From the NCBI GenBank assembly GCA_016178705.1, contig JACOST010000028.1, positions 516,951 to 580,950 of the forward strand: a stretch of DNA of 64,000 nucleotides, given 5' to 3'. The DNA is from Deltaproteobacteria bacterium. GTDB lineage: Bacteria > Desulfobacterota > Binatia > HRBIN30 > JACQVA1. Below are positions 24,789 through 31,211 of the stretch, piece after piece. A program made the translations under genes and the position numbers. Under the pieces are notes generated by a model that saw nothing but the letters and a program-made list of their open reading frames with translations, was not told where the DNA came from and ran no database searches. How positions within the stretch are numbered: the first letter of the stretch is position 1; each line of letters starts with the position of its first letter.

Positions 24789-26039
24789 CTAGGGCAGGTC
24801 TTTGAGGCCCGCGCGAGGTGCGCCCACCAGTGCCACCATCTTCCCCTCGGGCGCCTTGTTTTCATGCATGAGCTGATGGGACAGGGGGATTTCATCGAAT
24901 TTGAACGTACGCGCCAAGCAGGGATCGATCTTGCCGTCGAGCACGAGCTGATTGAACGCGTAGGCCTGATCGTCATTGGCGAAGTGGGATCCTTGGAAGC
25001 GTTTCTGCCGCATCCAAAGATAGCGCAGATCAGCGACCGCGTTGTAACCGGTAGTGCCGGCGCAGATGACCACCATACCGCCGCTGTCGCAGACGAAGAT
25101 CGACGTCGGAACAGTGTCCTCACCCGGATGCTCGAAGACGATGCGCGGGCTGCGGCGTTCGCCCAGGACGTCCCAGATCGCCTTGCCGAACGCGCGGCAC
25201 CCCGCCGCCCACTTGGTGTACGCGTCGGTGTCCTTCCAGTGCGGCATCATGCCCCAGTGGCTGAACTGCTTGCGGTTGATGCAGCCCTTGGCGCCGAGCT
25301 TCATGCAGAAATCGAACTTGCGATCGTCACCGACGACGGCGACCGGAACGCCGCCTTGCGCCTTGACGATTTGAATCGCCATGCAGCCGAGGCCGCCGGA
25401 CGCGCCCCACACCAGTACGACGTCGTTCGGTCGTACCGTGTGCGGCGGCCACGCCATCAGCATGCGATAGGCGGTGGCGCCGACCAGCGAGGGCGCGGCG
25501 GCTTCTTCCCACGTGAGGTGCTTGGCCTTCGGCATGCACTGATGCGCCTGCACTTTGGTGAACTGCGCGAAGCTGCCCCAGTTGGTCTCGTAGCCCCAGA
25601 TTTTGAACGACGGATCGAACATCGGATCGTCGCCCGCCTTCACCGCCGCGCAGTCGCGCTCCCACACGCCGCAATGGATGACGACCTGATCGCCGACCTT
25701 CACGCGGGTCACGTCGCGTCCGACCGCGTAGACGATGCCCGAGGCGTCGCTGCCGCCGATGTGAAAATCGCTCGGATCGTAATTCGACTTCTGCCGCGCG
25801 GCGATGACGTTGACGGGTGAGCCGAGCGCGGCCCACACGTTGTTGAAGTTCACGCCCGCCGCCATCGTGTACACGAGCGCTTCGTCGGGCTTGAGATCGG
25901 GCACGGCGACCTTCTCCACCTGGAACGCTTTGGTCGGTTCGCCAAAACGATCGGCCCGGATGAGCTGGCCGTACATGTACTTGGGAACCTGACCTAGCGG
26001 TGGGACTTCGCCGATCTCGTAGAGGTCCTTCGCGCTCAT
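24789..26039 (-). CDS. ccr: crotonyl-CoA carboxylase/reductase-type MDR enoyl reductase
   Basis: About 416 aa from ATG ([17 protein letters not shown]...). Long MDR with the characteristic Ccr N-terminus and NADPH-binding region ([11 protein letters not shown]). Confidence 0.75.
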
Positions 26040-26238
26040 GTTGAGAGTCCTTTCATCTTTGCGGGCCCGACCGCGCACGATCTACCGTGGCGCGTAGGTG
26101 AAGGCAACCGACCAGAAGTGAAGCGCGTTTGGTTGACTCGTGCAAGGTGCTTTGGTTGTGTCGGAGCATGCCGATCGCCGAGTGCGTGCGCAGCGGAGCG
26201 CGGGTGCATTGTCGTTGCGCGACTCGGACGGCGGCATC

Positions 26239-27264
26239 ATGAGAGCGGCGTTCTGTGTTGCCCCGGGGCAGTTCGAGCTGCGTGACGTTCCCGAACCGGC
26301 GCCCGCTCCGGGCGAGGTCTTGATCAAGATCCACAACTGCGGCATCTGCGGCAGCGATCTACACTGGTATCACGGCGGCGGCATTCCGATTCCGTCGGTA
26401 TGCCCCGGCCACGAAATCAGCGGCGAGGTGGCGGCGCTGGGTAACGGGGTGCGGGGCGTGCGCGCTGGCGACCGCGTCGCGATTGAACCGCTGCTGGTGT
26501 GTCACGAGTGTCGCTACTGTCGCAGCGGCGAGTACCAACTCTGCCGTCGGATGCGCATTCGCGGCATTAGTGCGGACGGCGGCTTTGCCGACTACGTGAG
26601 CATGCCGGAGTCCGCCGTCTTTCCGCTGCCGCAGTCGGTGGACTGGGAACTGGGTGCGATGGCTGAGCCGATGGCCGTGTGCGTGCATGCGCTGCGGCTC
26701 GCAGCGTTGCCGGTGGGCGCGCGGGTGTTGGTGCTGGGTGCGGGCACCATTGGTTTGCTGGCGATCGTGGCTGCACGCGCGGCCGGTGCGGCCGAGGTGT
26801 TGATCAGTGCGCGCTATCCGCACCAACACGCGGCGGCCGAACGGCTCGGGGCGCGAGTGTTTGACGCGAGCAGTGAGGGCGCGGCGCGATTGATCGACTA
26901 CGGCTATCACAATCCCGTCGATGCCGTGATTGAAACCGTCGGCGGTGTAGCGGACACGCTCAACGATGCCGTGCAACTCGTTCGGGCGGGCGGCGTCGTG
27001 GTCGTGCTCGGCGTGTTTACCGGTCCGGTGACGTGCAACGGTTTGTTGCTGGTGTCGAAGGAGGTTCGCATCGTCGGTTCGCTGACCTATAGCCGCGCCG
27101 GCGTGCGCGCCGAATTCGAGATCGCGTTGCAGCTCCTCGCCGAGCAGCGCACGAGCTTGCGACCGCTGGTTACGCACACCTTCTCGCTCGATCGCGTCGG
27201 CGAGGGCTTTGCCGCGGCGAGCGACAAAACGTCTGGCGCGATCAAGGTGACGGTCACATCCTGA
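26239..27264 (+). CDS. zinc-dependent alcohol/polyol dehydrogenase (MDR family)
   Basis: Catalytic and structural zinc motifs (GICGSDLH, CHECRYCRSGEYQLC). Rossmann motif LVLGAGTIG. Start at internal ATG (MRAAFCVAPGQF). Confidence 0.8.
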   Translation: MRAAFCVAPGQFELRDVPEPAPAPGEVLIKIHNCGICGSDLHWYHGGGIPIPSVCPGHEISGEVAALGNGVRGVRAGDRVAIEPLLVCHECRYCRSGEYQLCRRMRIRGISADGGFADYVSMPESAVFPLPQSVDWELGAMAEPMAVCVHALRLAALPVGARVLVLGAGTIGLLAIVAARAAGAAEVLISARYPHQHAAAERLGARVFDASSEGAARLIDYGYHNPVDAVIETVGGVADTLNDAVQLVRAGGVVVVLGVFTGPVTCNGLLLVSKEVRIVGSLTYSRAGVRAEFEIALQLLAEQRTSLRPLVTHTFSLDRVGEGFAAASDKTSGAIKVTVTS

Positions 27265-27267
27265 TTG

Positions 27268-27319
27268 AGAGGGCGAAGCTTCGCTGATTCGCGTGGCTCG
27301 CCAGAAGGCTCGCCCTCCC
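27268..27319. repeat. REP-like palindromic element copy 1
   Basis: gagggcgaagcttcgctg...gccagaaggctcgccctccc, with arms GGGCGAAGCTTC / GAAGGCTCGCCC. Degenerate relative to copies 2-4. Confidence 0.6.
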
Positions 27320-27354
27320 TCGGATCGTGGGCAGTGCGGAGAGTGATGGGTTGC

Positions 27355-27422
27355 GGGAGGGCGAAGCTTCCGCTGAGCCGCAGGGCACGGGATGCGCGGC
27401 TCGCCGGAAGGCTCGCCCTCCC
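27355..27422. repeat. REP-like palindromic element copy 2
   Basis: gggagggcgaagcttccgctgagccgcagggcacgggatgcgcggctcgccggaaggctcgccctccc. Terminal arms are reverse complements. Confidence 0.7.
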
Positions 27423-27449
27423 GGCCGTCTTGTGCGAAGGGGGATTCCG

Positions 27450-27908
27450 ATGGCGTTGCCAGAACGCAAACGCCCGACGACCGGGGTTGTCGTTTCGTCG
27501 GACGGACCGACGATCGTCTTCGTCACTGTTTGCACCAAGGATCGTCGTCGTTGGCTTGCCACGCCGCAGGTCCACGCCCTGTTGCGAACGCTATGGGCGG
27601 ACTCGCGCGCTTGGCGTGTTGGTCGGTACGTTCTCATGCCCGATCACCTTCATCTCTTCTGCGCCCCCGGGGTTTCCGACATCTCGCTGGCGCGTTGGGT
27701 GAAATACTGGAAGGCGCAAGTGACTCACCACCATCGTGTCGCGGACCATCAGTGGCAAGCCGGCTGCTGGGACACGCGCTTGCGAACCGGCGAGAGCTAC
27801 GAGCGCAAGTGGGACTACGTGCGCAACAACCCGGTGCGACAACAGTTGGTCGGAGGCGCGAAGGATTGGCCGTATCAAGGCGAGTTGGCTGTTCTCCCCT
27901 GGTATTAG
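27450..27908 (+). mobile_element. REP-associated tyrosine transposase (RAYT; IS200/IS605-like Y1 HuH transposase)
   Basis: 152-aa ORF from ATG 27450 (MALPERKRPTT...). HuH motif HLHLF and a conserved downstream Tyr region (RKWDYVRNNPV). Flanked on both sides by paired REP palindromes. Confidence 0.75.
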
Positions 27909-27924
27909 ACTCGGATGAGGTCTT

Positions 27925-27991
27925 GGGAGGGCGAAGCTCCCCTGAGCCGCAGGGCGGGGGATGCACGGCTCGCCGGAAGGCTCGCCCTCCC
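27925..27991. repeat. REP-like palindromic element copy 3
   Basis: gggagggcgaagctcccctgagccgcagggcgggggatgcacggctcgccggaaggctcgccctccc. Confidence 0.7.
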
Positions 27992-28027
27992 GTCGGACTG
28001 GTTGAACGTACCGAGCGTGATGATTCC

Positions 28028-28089
28028 GGGAGGGCGAAGCTTCCGCTGAGCCGCGGCAGTGCGCGGTTCGCCGGAAGGCTCGCCCTCCC
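28028..28089. repeat. REP-like palindromic element copy 4
   Basis: gggagggcgaagcttccgctgagccgcggcagtgcgcggttcgccggaaggctcgccctccc. Confidence 0.7.
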
Positions 28090-28193
28090 TTTTCTTTGCG
28101 CGCGTACCTGAGTAAGACAGCCACATCATGCCGGACATGGATTGGGGCAAGTCGCTGTACGGAGAGTCGTCCGCACAAAAGAAGGAGCGAACA

Positions 28194-29882
28194 ATGGCCG
28201 TTGTCGATGGAGGCACTCTGGTCGGTCGAGTCCTGCGCGAACAGAATGTGAAGCATTTGTTCGCGATCAATGGCGGACACACGTTCCCGATTCTTGCGAA
28301 TCTGCGCAACAACGACATCAAGCTGATTCACATGCGGCACGAACAAGCGTGCGCGTACGCCGCCGATGCCTATGCGCGCACGACGGCGGGCGTCGGCGTG
28401 TGCAGCGTGACGGCGGGCTGCGGCCTGACCAACGCGGTGACTGGCTTGTGCGTGGCGGGACTGACGAACAGCGCCGTGGTGTGCATCGCCGGCCAGCATC
28501 CGACGACGGAGGACTACCTCGGTTCGTTCCAAGAGGCGTACGGCTCGGACGTCTGCCGCAGCTTTTCGAAGTACGTGAAGCGGGTGCTCGACTGGAGCAC
28601 GATCGAATTCGATTTGCGGCTGGCTTTCCGCGAAGCCCTCAGTCCGCCGCAAGGGGTGGGTTTGATCGAGATTCCCACCAACATTCTCTATCACGGCGAC
28701 GATGAGTCGAAGCAGCGCAAAGGCGCCAAGGTCTACGAGCCGGATGCCGTGCGCTCGCAAGGCGACCCGGCGCAAATCGAACGCGCGCTCGAACTGCTGG
28801 TGCGCGCGGAACGGCCGTTGATCGCGTGCGGCGATGGGATCTTCTGGTCACAGGCCGGCGCCGAGTTGCGCGAACTCGTCGACCTGACGCACATCCCAGC
28901 CTATGCGCGGCGAGCCGGGCAGGGTGCGATTGCCGAGGATCATCCGCTGGCGATCCGCGGCTCGTGGAAGAAGCCGTTCACCGGTCGCGCGGATGTGGTG
29001 TTGGCGATCGGCTTCCGCTTCTGGAGCGGCGAGCATTTCGGCGAGCCTCCGACATGGAACGACAAGGCGACCTATATCCAGGCCGATCCGGTGCCGAGCC
29101 GCATCGGGTGGCAGGTGCCGGCGGAAGTTGCGATCGTCGGCGATCCGAAGTTGGTGCTGCGCCAATTGATCGATACGGCCAAGCGCCTGAAGTTGGACTT
29201 CTCGCGTCAGCGCCAGTCGGCGTGGGTGAAGGAAGTCGCCGAGGTGCGTGCAAACTACGAGAACCTGATCGACGAGAGCGAACAGAAAGTGCGCGACCGC
29301 ACCCCTATTCATCCCGATCGACTGGCGCGCGATCTGTGCGCGGTGATGGACAAGGACGCCACGGTCGTCATCGACTCGTTCACGCTCAGCGGTTGGATGA
29401 CGCAGTGGTTCCGCGCTCGCTTTCCCGGACAAGTTGTCGATGCCGGTCCGCTGGCTCCGGTCGGTCATGGCGTCGGTATGGCGATCGGTGTGCAACTCGC
29501 GCGACCAGGTAAGCAAGTCGTGCTCGTCACCGGCGACGGCGGCCTCGGCATCGGCGGCTGGGACATCGAAACCGCGCTGCGCTACGATCTGCCAGTCCAA
29601 ACCGTGCTGTGGAACAACAGCTCATGGGGCCCGAGCTTTGAGCAGATGCCGTTGCTCAAAGGCCGCACCGATCCGTTCAACATGATCGAGAACATCCGGT
29701 ACGATCAGATGTTCAAGATCATGGGTTGTCACGGCGAGCACGCCGAGAAACCCGACGAGATCGTCCCGGCGCTCGAACGCGCGTTCAAGTCCGGCAAAGC
29801 GTCGCTGATCAACGTGGTTGGCGACAAACGCGTGGGGCATCCGCGCTTAGGCGGTAATCTGCTCGGATCGACGCAGGTCTGA
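28194..29882 (+). CDS. thiamine-pyrophosphate-dependent enzyme (acetolactate synthase/benzoylformate decarboxylase-like)
   Basis: Start ATG after GAAGGAG. TPP-binding motif GDGGLGIGGWDIETA...NN. N-terminal Pyr domain (…AINGGHTFPI…). Confidence 0.8.
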   Translation: MAVVDGGTLVGRVLREQNVKHLFAINGGHTFPILANLRNNDIKLIHMRHEQACAYAADAYARTTAGVGVCSVTAGCGLTNAVTGLCVAGLTNSAVVCIAGQHPTTEDYLGSFQEAYGSDVCRSFSKYVKRVLDWSTIEFDLRLAFREALSPPQGVGLIEIPTNILYHGDDESKQRKGAKVYEPDAVRSQGDPAQIERALELLVRAERPLIACGDGIFWSQAGAELRELVDLTHIPAYARRAGQGAIAEDHPLAIRGSWKKPFTGRADVVLAIGFRFWSGEHFGEPPTWNDKATYIQADPVPSRIGWQVPAEVAIVGDPKLVLRQLIDTAKRLKLDFSRQRQSAWVKEVAEVRANYENLIDESEQKVRDRTPIHPDRLARDLCAVMDKDATVVIDSFTLSGWMTQWFRARFPGQVVDAGPLAPVGHGVGMAIGVQLARPGKQVVLVTGDGGLGIGGWDIETALRYDLPVQTVLWNNSSWGPSFEQMPLLKGRTDPFNMIENIRYDQMFKIMGCHGEHAEKPDEIVPALERAFKSGKASLINVVGDKRVGHPRLGGNLLGSTQV

Positions 29883-29886
29883 GCGC

Positions 29887-31089
29887 TCAGATCGCGCCGC
29901 CGTCGCGCAGAGCGGCGATCTCCCGCGCTGACAAACCGAGCAACTCAGACAACACCTCGTCGGTATGTTGTCCGATCGTTGGCGGTGGCGTCACTGAGGG
30001 CTCCGGATCGTCCGAGAGTTTGATCGGCGTGCCGATCACCTTCACGCTGCCGCGTCCGGGATACTCGACCTCGCGCACGATGGCGCGTTCGACGAGGTGC
30101 GGATCGCGGCCGACTTCGGGGAGCGTCCGCACCGGTGCGCTGGGGATGCCGGCGGCGGCGACGGCGTGCGCCACGTCATCGCGGTTGCGAGTGATCGTCC
30201 ATTTTTCAACTTCGGCTTCGATCGTCTGCCAATCGGCGGCGCGCTCGGGCACGCCGTGCCAGCGCGCGTTGGCGAGCATGTCGGGACGGTCCATCAAGCG
30301 GCAGAGATCGAGCCAGTGTTGGTTCGACACGCACATGATGGCGACGTAGCCGCCATCGGCGCAGGGGAAGTTGTTGTACGGCGTGGCACCACCAACGACA
30401 TGCCGATTGCCGCTGCGAGTGATTTCCTGGTTCAGTTCGTAGAACGGCGCGAGATAGCTGAGCAGGGCGGGGACGGCGGCGTCGAACATCGCGACTTCGA
30501 CACGTTGCCCGCGTCCGGTTCGTTCGCGCTCCCGCAACGCAAGCAGGATTCCGGCGAGCAGATGCGTGGCGCCGAGCATATCGATGAACGTCGGTCCACA
30601 CTTCACCGGCGGTAAGTCGGGGTAGCCGGTGATGGCCATCGCGCCGACGAGGGCCTGAATGGTGAAGTCCATCGCGGGGTAGCCGACATATGGACCGGTG
30701 GTGCCGAAGCCGCTGCCAGAGGCGAAGACGAGGCGCGGATTGCGCACGCTGACCACGTCGTAGCCGATGCCGAGTCGTTCCATCACGCCGGCGGCGAAGT
30801 TTTCGACGATCACGTCTGCATGTTCGGTGAGCTGCAGAAACAGCTCGCGTCCGCGCTCGTGCTTGAGGTTGATGGTGACGCCGCGCTTGTTGGCGTTGAG
30901 CATGAGGAACGGATAGCTGGCGCCGCCGGGCGAGCGGTCCATGCGCCGCAAGACGTCGCCCTGCGGCGACTCGATCTTGATGACGTCGGCGCCGTGATGC
31001 GCGAGCAGGAGTGAGCAGTACGGGCCGTTGTAGATCTGCCCCAGTTCGAGCACGGTGAGGCCGGCGAGCGGTCGCGTCGACGCGGTCAT
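29887..31089 (-). CDS. family III CoA-transferase (CaiB/BaiF/formyl-CoA transferase-like)
   Basis: Start at internal ATG (MTASTRPLAGLTVLELGQIYNGPYCSLLLAHHGADVIKIE). Typical CaiB N-terminus and conserved Asp region. Confidence 0.8.
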   Translation of the reverse strand: MTASTRPLAGLTVLELGQIYNGPYCSLLLAHHGADVIKIESPQGDVLRRMDRSPGGASYPFLMLNANKRGVTINLKHERGRELFLQLTEHADVIVENFAAGVMERLGIGYDVVSVRNPRLVFASGSGFGTTGPYVGYPAMDFTIQALVGAMAITGYPDLPPVKCGPTFIDMLGATHLLAGILLALRERERTGRGQRVEVAMFDAAVPALLSYLAPFYELNQEITRSGNRHVVGGATPYNNFPCADGGYVAIMCVSNQHWLDLCRLMDRPDMLANARWHGVPERAADWQTIEAEVEKWTITRNRDDVAHAVAAAGIPSAPVRTLPEVGRDPHLVERAIVREVEYPGRGSVKVIGTPIKLSDDPEPSVTPPPTIGQHTDEVLSELLGLSAREIAALRDGGAI

Positions 31090-31211
31090 GATTGGGGGGG
31101 TGTAGCAGGTGTCGCCGGGCAGGGGCCAGCGGCGACGCAATTCAATACCCGGCTTGCGCTACCGCTGGCAGACGCTGATACTCGCGGCAAATCTCATCCG
31201 GAGGTGCTGTG

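Follow-up and report, generated by a model that had tools for sequence, protein, structure and literature searches.

A RAYT gene bracketed by GGAG-tagged REP doublets between an alcohol dehydrogenase gene and a thiamine-pyrophosphate enzyme gene of a Binatia bacterium

Introduction

What separates two metabolic genes that are direct neighbors in related genomes, and how did it come to lie there? This question is raised by a 64,000-nucleotide stretch of a Binatia genome (assembly GCA_016178705.1, contig JACOST010000028.1, positions 516,951 to 580,950 of the forward strand; hereafter the window), in which 863 nt lie between the stop codon of a zinc-dependent alcohol dehydrogenase (ADH) gene at 27264 and the start codon of a gene for a thiamine-pyrophosphate (TPP) enzyme at 28128 (or, as annotated, 28194). 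A third, small gene is located between them, and all three are encoded on the + strand. An initial annotation, made from the sequence alone, had taken this interval for a REP-associated tyrosine transposase (RAYT) gene surrounded by repetitive extragenic palindromes (REPs). RAYTs are small tyrosine transposase genes bracketed by palindromic repeats that are thought to be copied by them.

Based on the analysis described here, the locus is very probably a REPtron, that is, a single intact RAYT/TnpAREP gene encoding a single-strand DNA nuclease of the HUH-Y1 type and bracketed by its cognate REPs, a module which was inserted between ancestrally adjacent co-directional genes. This conclusion is carried by the identity and catalytic residues of the protein, the architecture of the repeats, the association of such repeats with homologous genes, the covariation within their stems and the insertion itself, and it accounts for the 863-nt intergenic region that divides an otherwise conserved ADH-TPP gene pair.

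The gene encodes an intact RAYT protein

A phmmer search against all PDB sequences returned a single real match for the encoded protein, TnpAREP of Escherichia coli (4ER8, E 2.5e-10). In the alignment with this protein, the HuH motif H66-L67-H68 (27645-27653) falls on H59-M60-H61, the catalytic Tyr123 (27816-27818), which is part of the sequence YVRNNPV, falls on Y115, and N127 falls on N119. Both catalytic sites that had been suspected from the HuH and Tyr motifs of this 152-amino-acid open reading frame (ORF) are therefore in place; the roles of the corresponding E. coli residues have been described (Messing et al. 2012, PMC3479197). An alignment of the window protein with 29 homologues (30 sequences in total) revealed that H66, H68, Y123, N127, P128 and V129 are invariant. 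The protein also contains the guide-recognition motif W102-Q103 ... W107-D108-T109-R110-L111-R112.

The family assignment agrees with these residues. The curated NCBIfam equivalog model NF047646 (REP_Tyr_transpos) matches residues 22-142 with 82.3 bits at a cut-off of 80 (E 3.1e-23). An AlphaFold model built on the alignment of homologues reached a predicted local distance difference test (pLDDT) value of 88 and a predicted template modelling (pTM) score of 0.82, and a Foldseek search of solved structures with this model placed 4er8_A first (E 1.6e-8, template modelling (TM) score 0.69), with the transposases of the insertion sequences (IS) ISDra2, IS608 and IS200 at a TM score of ∼0.52. Identity as an IS200 transposase was considered and rejected, the equivalog model NF033573 giving only 19.8 bits at a cut-off of 55.

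The protein family is very large, with 1409 matches, many of them labelled RayT by the Joint Genome Institute. The closest non-identical protein among 5.8 billion shares only 64% identity with the window protein, and the 64 kb of the window contain one RAYT copy. A longer version of the gene starting at a GTG codon at 27327 (193 amino acids) was rejected, as it would translate one of the repeats (R2, see below) and the homologues start near the ATG at 27450.

One homologue, P0063, carries an in-frame insertion, EVMGYGSAGASPSHPAGASPSHPAGASPSH, between its HuH and Tyr motifs (alignment columns ∼94-120), which resembles translated REP repeats (GASPSH repeats). In the text of Quentin et al. (PMC6006769), insertions of this kind are given as typical of their subclass 2.4.

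Each palindrome consists of two inverted REPs

Four palindromic elements, termed R1 to R4 (Table 1), are found where the initial annotation had placed them, two upstream and two downstream of the gene, each about 52-68 bp long. That annotation had treated the element as one REP of ∼65 bp. The four palindromes are real, but this unit is not a single REP: since each arm fits one and the same 24-nt plan on its own strand, the "65-bp REP" consists of two different REPs arranged tail to tail with their heads pointing outward. Following a GGAG tag at the 5′ end, the plan has a G+C-rich stem of 8 bp, interrupted midway by a tandem G.A/A.G mismatch, and a TTCC loop. Two types of REP occur, A and B, with the inner stems AGC:GCT and GCC:GGC, respectively, which differ by compensating changes. 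The resulting layout is A-> <-B, A-> <-B, RAYT, A-> <-B, A-> <-B, with a period of ∼100 bp.

The clearest example is R2, in which both REPs are intact: REP-A on the top strand (27356-27379) reads GGAG/GGC-GA-AGC/TTCC/GCT-GA-GCC and REP-B on the bottom strand (27398-27421) reads GGAG/GGC-GA-GCC/TTCC/GGC-GA-GCC. REP-A of R4 (28029-28052, top strand) is identical to that of R2, while the bottom arm of R4 (28065-28089) contains one stem mismatch (GGCGAACC). R1 has retained an intact REP on the bottom strand only (27295-27318, GGAG/GGCGAGCC/TTCT/GGCGAGCC); in its top-strand arm the head is mutated (GAGAG) and the stem is broken, and with this left arm decayed the whole element is shorter. In R2 and R4, the arms are 27-28 nt long, 82-86% complementary and 6-14 nt apart, as expected for the REP doublets that the literature terms REPINs or units of bacterial interspersed mosaic elements.

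The repetition exceeds chance expectation. The exact 27-nt left arm occurs twice, compared with no occurrence in 100 shuffled sequences, and the 13-nt core GGGAGGGCGAGCC occurs four times, compared with 0.25 expected. A profile built from the four copies recovers these copies, on the + strand only, with E values between 1e-16 and 1e-19, as any profile would for its own training sequences. The scores, 55-66 bits on the + strand but no more than 18 bits on the – strand, reveal that the palindromes are asymmetric and that all four share one orientation. A strict detector for GGAG followed by a hairpin accepts six of the eight arms and finds just two unrelated matches in the rest of the 64 kb.

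The hairpins were not called by general-purpose tools: an Rfam scan of 27000-28400 returned only sub-threshold miRNA-precursor noise for them (24-26 bits at gathering scores of 70-99), without a fit to any known RNA family, and none of the REPs was called by an automatic terminator/promoter scan. By eye, R4 together with the T-rich tract TTTTCTTT that follows it looks like an intrinsic terminator.

The number of doublets differs between two closely related sequences. The contig L001 from a metagenome-assembled genome (MAG), which is 99.9% identical to the window over 17.7 kb, contains three REP doublets 3′ of the RAYT gene, compared with two in the window. The difference between L001 7789-7926 and window 27992-28027 is one 105-bp unit, consisting of a spacer and a doublet with its own loop. 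Three Logan contigs stop exactly at the end of R3. The two- and three-doublet states could reflect either a real copy-number polymorphism or an assembly collapse. MAG GCA_016195705.1 is from soil or sediment and is likewise filed as "Deltaproteobacteria bacterium".

GGAG hairpins accompany homologous genes

Homologues that are 37-58% identical to the window protein were taken from 80 metagenome loci, and the flanks of 42 homologue loci were inspected. These flanks follow a common plan: 5′-[T/G]GGAG, a stem of 7-8 bp starting with GG, and a TCC-rich loop. A profile of the four window doublets finds REPs in only six of the 80 loci, all of them adjoining the gene; since such a sequence search is too specific, a structural detector was applied instead, which asks for GGAG followed by a perfect or G.A-interrupted hairpin.

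With this detector, the DNA up to 300 bp from the gene yielded 180 hairpins (3.97 per kb) and the DNA farther away 33 (0.09 per kb), a 44-fold difference in density; at least one hairpin was present in 63 of the 80 loci. Control heads such as CGTC, GCAG and GGAC gave between none and one match near the gene. The hairpins represent 58 different stems. The arrangement that the initial annotation had described as that of REPs or bacterial interspersed mosaic elements (BIMEs) with their RAYT thus holds up here, with a passed RAYT model, 4ER8 as the best fold, and palindromes on both sides of the gene as in most of the 80 homologous loci. Many of these loci show a minimal layout of one REP per side, heads outward.

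As the detector itself demands pairing, circularity was checked by collecting all GGAGGG sites that lie no more than 300 bp from a gene, whether paired or not, which yielded 263 unique sites. Over the eight stem positions, 70% of the cells are paired in register, a value that drops to 34-51% if the 3′ partner is shifted by 1-3 nt. Stem pairs 3-7 each include CG, GC, AT and TA types, and the tandem G.A is present at ∼16% of the 263 sites. The repeats also go along with the proteins: proteins that share a REP geometry class are 52.8% identical to each other, compared with 48.6% to the rest, a difference reached in none of 2000 label permutations.

Arrays of partial arms are present in some genomes. 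At L005 (3170-3310, – strand), three copies of GGCTCGCCGGGAGGCTCGCCCTCGCGATCC precede a full arm, and 5′ of the RAYT gene of L045 (∼1080-1175) the unit (C/G)AAGAGGGCGAAGCTCTT is repeated. Fragments of REPs can apparently amplify locally as tandem arrays.

The module was inserted between ADH and TPP genes

The closest relatives of the TPP enzyme encoded in the window are labelled Candidatus Binatia. Two relatives, a Binatia MAG (L118/L119) and a metagenome contig (L120), with TPP enzymes 93% and 88% identical to that of the window, were compared. Both have the same Zn-ADH gene directly 5′ of the TPP gene, with only 52-75 nt between the ADH stop codon and the conserved MPDMDW start of the TPP enzyme, and in the 13.7 kb available from these relatives neither a RAYT nor a REP was detected. 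Since the ADH and TPP genes are adjacent in the relatives without a RAYT between them, the module in the window is an insertion, and the suggestion of the initial annotation that an element splits these two genes is borne out.

In the window, the 38 nt immediately 5′ of the TPP start, TTTTCTTT among them, resemble the ancestral spacer as found in L120, which indicates that the insertion point of the module lay only a few nucleotides from the ADH stop codon. In these relatives, other genes (Band_7, M24 peptidase, HSP20) follow 3′ of the TPP gene, and the conserved part is the ADH-TPP pair only.

That the orthologous spacer lacks the module speaks for movement into, or acquisition at, this position. 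In the usual picture, RAYTs are immobile, vertically inherited and single-copy (PMC5581495). The insertion fits this picture uneasily, which keeps alive the minority alternative that the gene travels together with its REPs: related genomes differ at a single site in having or lacking a RAYT module that is supposedly immobile.

Related REPs occur in other phyla

REPs are held to be species-specific. In the species-representative genomes of GTDB, the exact 22-nt right arm TCGCCNGAAGGCTCGCCCTCCC is found at 33 places in 27 assemblies, all of them MAGs, which are labelled Planctomycetota, Acidobacteriota, Chloroflexota, Binatia, Acidimicrobiia, Bacillota and Ignavibacteria. Most of these matches are full doublets of the same heterodimer design. 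No RAYT was found around any of the 33 matches in the up to 8 kb examined per locus. One of the doublets with the exact right arm (L006) belongs to a Binatia assembly that also holds a RAYT-less TPP locus (L121), at an unrelated place.

Dispersal away from the gene is also seen in the homologous loci, where 23 of the 33 distal hairpins share their stem with the gene-adjacent REPs of their own locus. Such same-stem REPs more than 1 kb from the gene occur at a density of ∼1 per 22 kb. At this density ∼2.9 copies would be expected in the other 63 kb of the window, and none was seen (Poisson P ∼0.05). This bears on the proposal of the initial annotation that the window might hold the focal locus of the repeat: the proposal is reasonable, as the 64 kb contain no further copy, but given this expectation that absence is weak evidence for a focal locus.

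In six loci of Isosphaeraceae (L018, L021, L024, L028, L035 and L037), the doublet has extra conserved flanks, ..CGTGATTCC/GGGAGGG...CCCTCCC/GGAATCGTGC.., which pair solely by G.T wobbles; the extension would for this reason be strand-specific. The window spacers before R2 and R4 share the GTGAT..TTCC part of these flanks.

The GGAG tag and matching residues of the protein

The texts of two REP surveys (PMC3733652, PMC6006769) give GTAG/GTGG (GT[AG]G) as the canonical REP tag, CGTC for a second super-family and CnGA for class 3 of Quentin. The arms in the window carry GGAG in place of the canonical tag. The string GGAG is absent from the text of both surveys, a search that left their figures and supplements aside. 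The tag varies a descriptive feature of REPs and is no reason to exclude the protein from the RAYT family. It is also not peculiar to the window: among 350 near-gene hairpins of the homologous loci, 177 are tagged GGAG, 17 GTAG and seven GTGG.

According to the text of Quentin et al. (PMC6006769, citing 4ER8), the residues of the E. coli protein related to GTAG are W94, Q95, E100, H101 and R104. Aligned to these, the window protein has W102-Q103 ... D108-T109 ... R112. In loci with a majority of GGAG tags, position 108, which is aligned to E100 of E. coli, is D in all 54 cases, followed by T, R, K or S. In loci with GT[AG]G tags, it is H in all nine cases, mostly followed by another H; H-type loci number 11 in total. 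This pattern hints at a switch in specificity that concerns the second tag base.

We tentatively propose, as a possibility that we rate somewhat below an even chance, a large RAYT clade spread over several phyla (Binatia, Planctomycetota, Acidobacteriota, Chloroflexota and others) and absent from the text of the surveys. It would combine the GGAG tag with a matched D-T/R in place of E/H-H, at residues described as contacting the guide, and with a REP that is conserved nearly letter for letter across phyla, and its genes and REPs would still insert as a unit. If this is true, the GGAG clade with D-T/R would be a natural specificity switch of guide reading. The paired natural variants (GGAG with W-D-T/R; GT[AG]G with W/F-H-H) could be useful for probing how RAYTs read their guide tetranucleotide.

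Comparison with known systems

The best match among solved structures in both sequence and fold is the REPtron of E. coli K-12 (TnpAREP/RayT/YafM with its BIMEs, 4ER8; subclass 2.2 of Quentin 2018, group 2 of Bertels). Both proteins share the HuH motif, the catalytic Tyr in Y-x-x-x-N-P and the W-Q motif, in both loci the gene is bracketed by REPs of two types in alternating orientation, and in both cases the REP consists of a 5′ tetranucleotide and an imperfect hairpin. A mismatch in the E. coli REP hairpin is required for binding (PMC3479197). The differences are nevertheless considerable. Sequence identity is only about 26-30%, D108-T109 replaces E100-H101, and at 152 amino acids the window protein is shorter than the E. 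coli enzyme (165 amino acids) and lacks its inhibitory C-terminal tail with E161. The REPs in the window are tagged GGAG instead of GTAG and have a short 8-bp stem with a tandem G.A, compared with a long bulged stem, and the host is a Binatia MAG and not a gammaproteobacterium.

Judged by the descriptions in Table 1 of Quentin, the REPIN-RAYT systems of Pseudomonas and xanthomonads (group 3 of Bertels, subclass 2.5 of Quentin) are most similar in motifs and size (DH[LF]H, WQ, ∼151 amino acids, short REPs). Like these, the window has inverted REP doublets that can be folded into one long hairpin and that flank the RAYT gene. In contrast to subclass 2.5, its Y motif is YVRNNP instead of YI[VI]ANP and its tag is GGAG, and copy numbers in Pseudomonas are in the hundreds. 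Subclass 2.4 (group 4 of Bertels; Cyanobacteria, Bacteroidetes and scattered phyla) shares a Y motif YIxNNP, the WQ motif and a scattered distribution over many phyla, but it has the HuH motif NH[IFV]H (DHLH in the window), a median length of 194 amino acids and long or "double foot" REPs with GT[AG]G.

Two more distant systems share part of the design. The TnpA proteins of IS200/IS605 elements (IS608, ISDra2) have the same HUH-Y1 fold and the same logic of a subterminal hairpin with a 5′ guide tetranucleotide, whereas the window protein fails the IS200 model and is flanked by repeated inverted REPs and not by distinct left and right ends. The class 3 TnpAY1 proteins of Quentin occur in the same phyla (Planctomycetes, Acidobacteria, Proteobacteria) and are flanked by hairpins that can be abundant. 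This class was rejected on account of its Y----Q motif, its NHVH motif and its CnGA foot, which stand against YxxxNP, DHLH and a GGAG foot in the window.

Alternative explanations

Several observations weigh against reading the locus as a REPtron with disseminated REPs. The NF047646 score exceeds its cut-off by a small margin (82.3 vs. 80 bits), and the match to the Pfam family Y1_Tnp (PF01797) stays below the gathering score (19 vs. 23 bits, E 0.0016); a few homologues have a precomputed PF01797 match. Three of the eight arms carry lesions and five are intact. No REP copy was detected beyond the cluster, the profile search over the 64 kb giving nothing better than E 0.03; this search covered the 64-kb window of the genome, and any dissemination in this genome is putative. 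Where the exact arm is present, a representative genome has just one or two copies of it, which suggests a low-copy population, whereas classical REPs number in the hundreds. The tag-residue correlation is uncorrected for ancestry, with an identity of 0.50 within the H type, 0.49 within the D type and 0.44 between them. Finally, nuclease activity, cleavage site and a role in transcription are carried over from E. coli.

The strongest alternative, which we nevertheless consider unlikely, is an autonomous, still-mobile IS200/IS605-like element, whose ends are the palindromes and whose transposase travels together with the hairpins beside it. Such an element would explain why two related Binatia genomes have this ADH-TPP spacer but lack the whole module in it, which points to arrival as a unit, and would agree with the minimal layout of one outward-pointing REP per side at many homologous loci. 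It does not account for the doublets themselves, because the same inverted doublets are found on both sides instead of distinct left and right ends on one strand, nor for same-stem REPs that lie kilobases from the gene and, in representative genomes, lack a nearby RAYT. The protein passes the RAYT model and falls far short of the IS200 model, and its nearest relative in the 5.8 billion proteins, at 64% identity, gives no sign of a recent multi-copy spread.

Even less probable, and in our view close to dismissal, is a purely local tandem amplification of REP and spacer (∼100 bp period) that yielded at most transcript-end hairpins, without dissemination here and with an inactive or irrelevant transposase: the lack of further copies in the 64 kb, the repeated spacers with one extra 105-bp unit in L001, typical of unequal recombination or slippage, and the succession of R4 and TTTTCTTT would be in line with it, but the same architecture recurs at most of the 80 homologous loci with stems that covary with the protein, a doublet with the exact right arm lies at an unrelated place in another Binatia genome (L006), the ORF is intact with every catalytic residue kept, and the T-tract belongs to the ancestral spacer outside the repeat.

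A proposed mechanism

For the REPtron that we favor, a mechanism can be proposed by analogy to TnpAREP of E. coli. The enzyme would bind a folded REP on single-stranded DNA, reading both its 5′ tag and its mismatched stem, and would cleave nearby through a phosphotyrosine at Y123 with a metal bound by the HuH motif. The E. coli enzyme cuts at a CT dinucleotide, and the A and G of the tag face its active site; both the A and the G are kept in GGAG. Rejoining of the strands could then create, move and maintain copies of the REP or of the doublet (REPIN). The hairpins, now located after the ADH gene and before the TPP gene, may act as 3′-end stabilizers or terminators.

Taken as a whole, the locus is an ordinary example of a known system, with three details that go beyond the routine: the GGAG tag with matching changes in the protein, the near-identical REP arms across phyla, and a module that related genomes have or lack at one site. 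The tag variant and the presence/absence at one site are incremental to a system that has been described since 2010-2012.

Locus layout and flanking genes

Table 1. Features of the interval between the ADH and TPP genes and of the two flanking genes, in window coordinates
Feature	Position	Strand	Remarks
Zn-dependent alcohol dehydrogenase gene	26140..27264	+	Pfam ADH_N and ADH_zinc_N; upstream context, outside the element
REP doublet R1, decayed	27268..27319	+	starts 3 nt 3′ of the ADH stop; DNA fold -15.2 kcal/mol, z -2.1
REP doublet R2, intact, tail to tail	27355..27422	+	fold -32.6 kcal/mol, z -5.5
Putative purine-rich ribosome-binding-site-like sequence GAAGGGGGA	27437..27445	+	ends 4 nt 5′ of the ATG; read from the sequence
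RAYT/TnpAREP gene, 152 amino acids, intact	27450..27908	+	ATG 27450, stop 27908; NF047646, 4ER8 alignment, AlphaFold model
REP doublet R3	27925..27991	+	top arm 27926-27948 with 1-nt deletion; REP-B 27967-27990 intact; -22.2 kcal/mol, z -2.0
36-nt spacer GTCGGACTGGTTGAACGTACCGAGCGTGATGATTCC	27992..28027	+	resembles the upstream spacer 27320-27354
REP doublet R4	28028..28089	+	fold -27.1 kcal/mol, z -4.3
T-rich tract TTTTCTTT	28090..28097	+	directly 3′ of R4; ancestral ADH-TPP spacer; like the tract in L120
Thiamine-pyrophosphate enzyme gene	28128..29882	+	Pfam TPP_enzyme_N, _M, _C; downstream context; start 28128 or 28194 (annotated)

The start codons of both flanking genes deserve a comment. 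The ADH start as annotated in the MAG contig L001 corresponds to position 26239 of the window. For the TPP enzyme, the N-terminal peptide MPDMDWGKSLYGES, which is encoded from 28128 and thus 5′ of the annotated start, is kept in the window and in L118, L120 and L121. The true start is therefore probably 28128 (584 amino acids) and not 28194 (562 amino acids), the alternative being a conserved leader.

The neighborhood had been described as one of coenzyme A (CoA) metabolism, in agreement with the genes for a family III CoA-transferase and an enoyl-CoA hydratase found nearby. The regions inspected (24789-26078 and 29887-31140, both on the – strand, and the downstream genes of L001) also include a second, 429-amino-acid protein of the ADH superfamily and a glutathione S-transferase.

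Several long ORFs predicted mechanically between 27087 and 28775 on both strands run across the REPs, for example 27392-28111 (+, 239 amino acids), 27591-28775 (–, 394 amino acids) and 27905-28321 (–, 138 amino acids). They include peptides that derive from the REPs, such as GRLALP and REGEPSGEP. ORFs of this kind are likely sources of spurious "hypothetical proteins", and annotators should be aware that several long ORFs in 27250-28780 are artefacts of REP translation.

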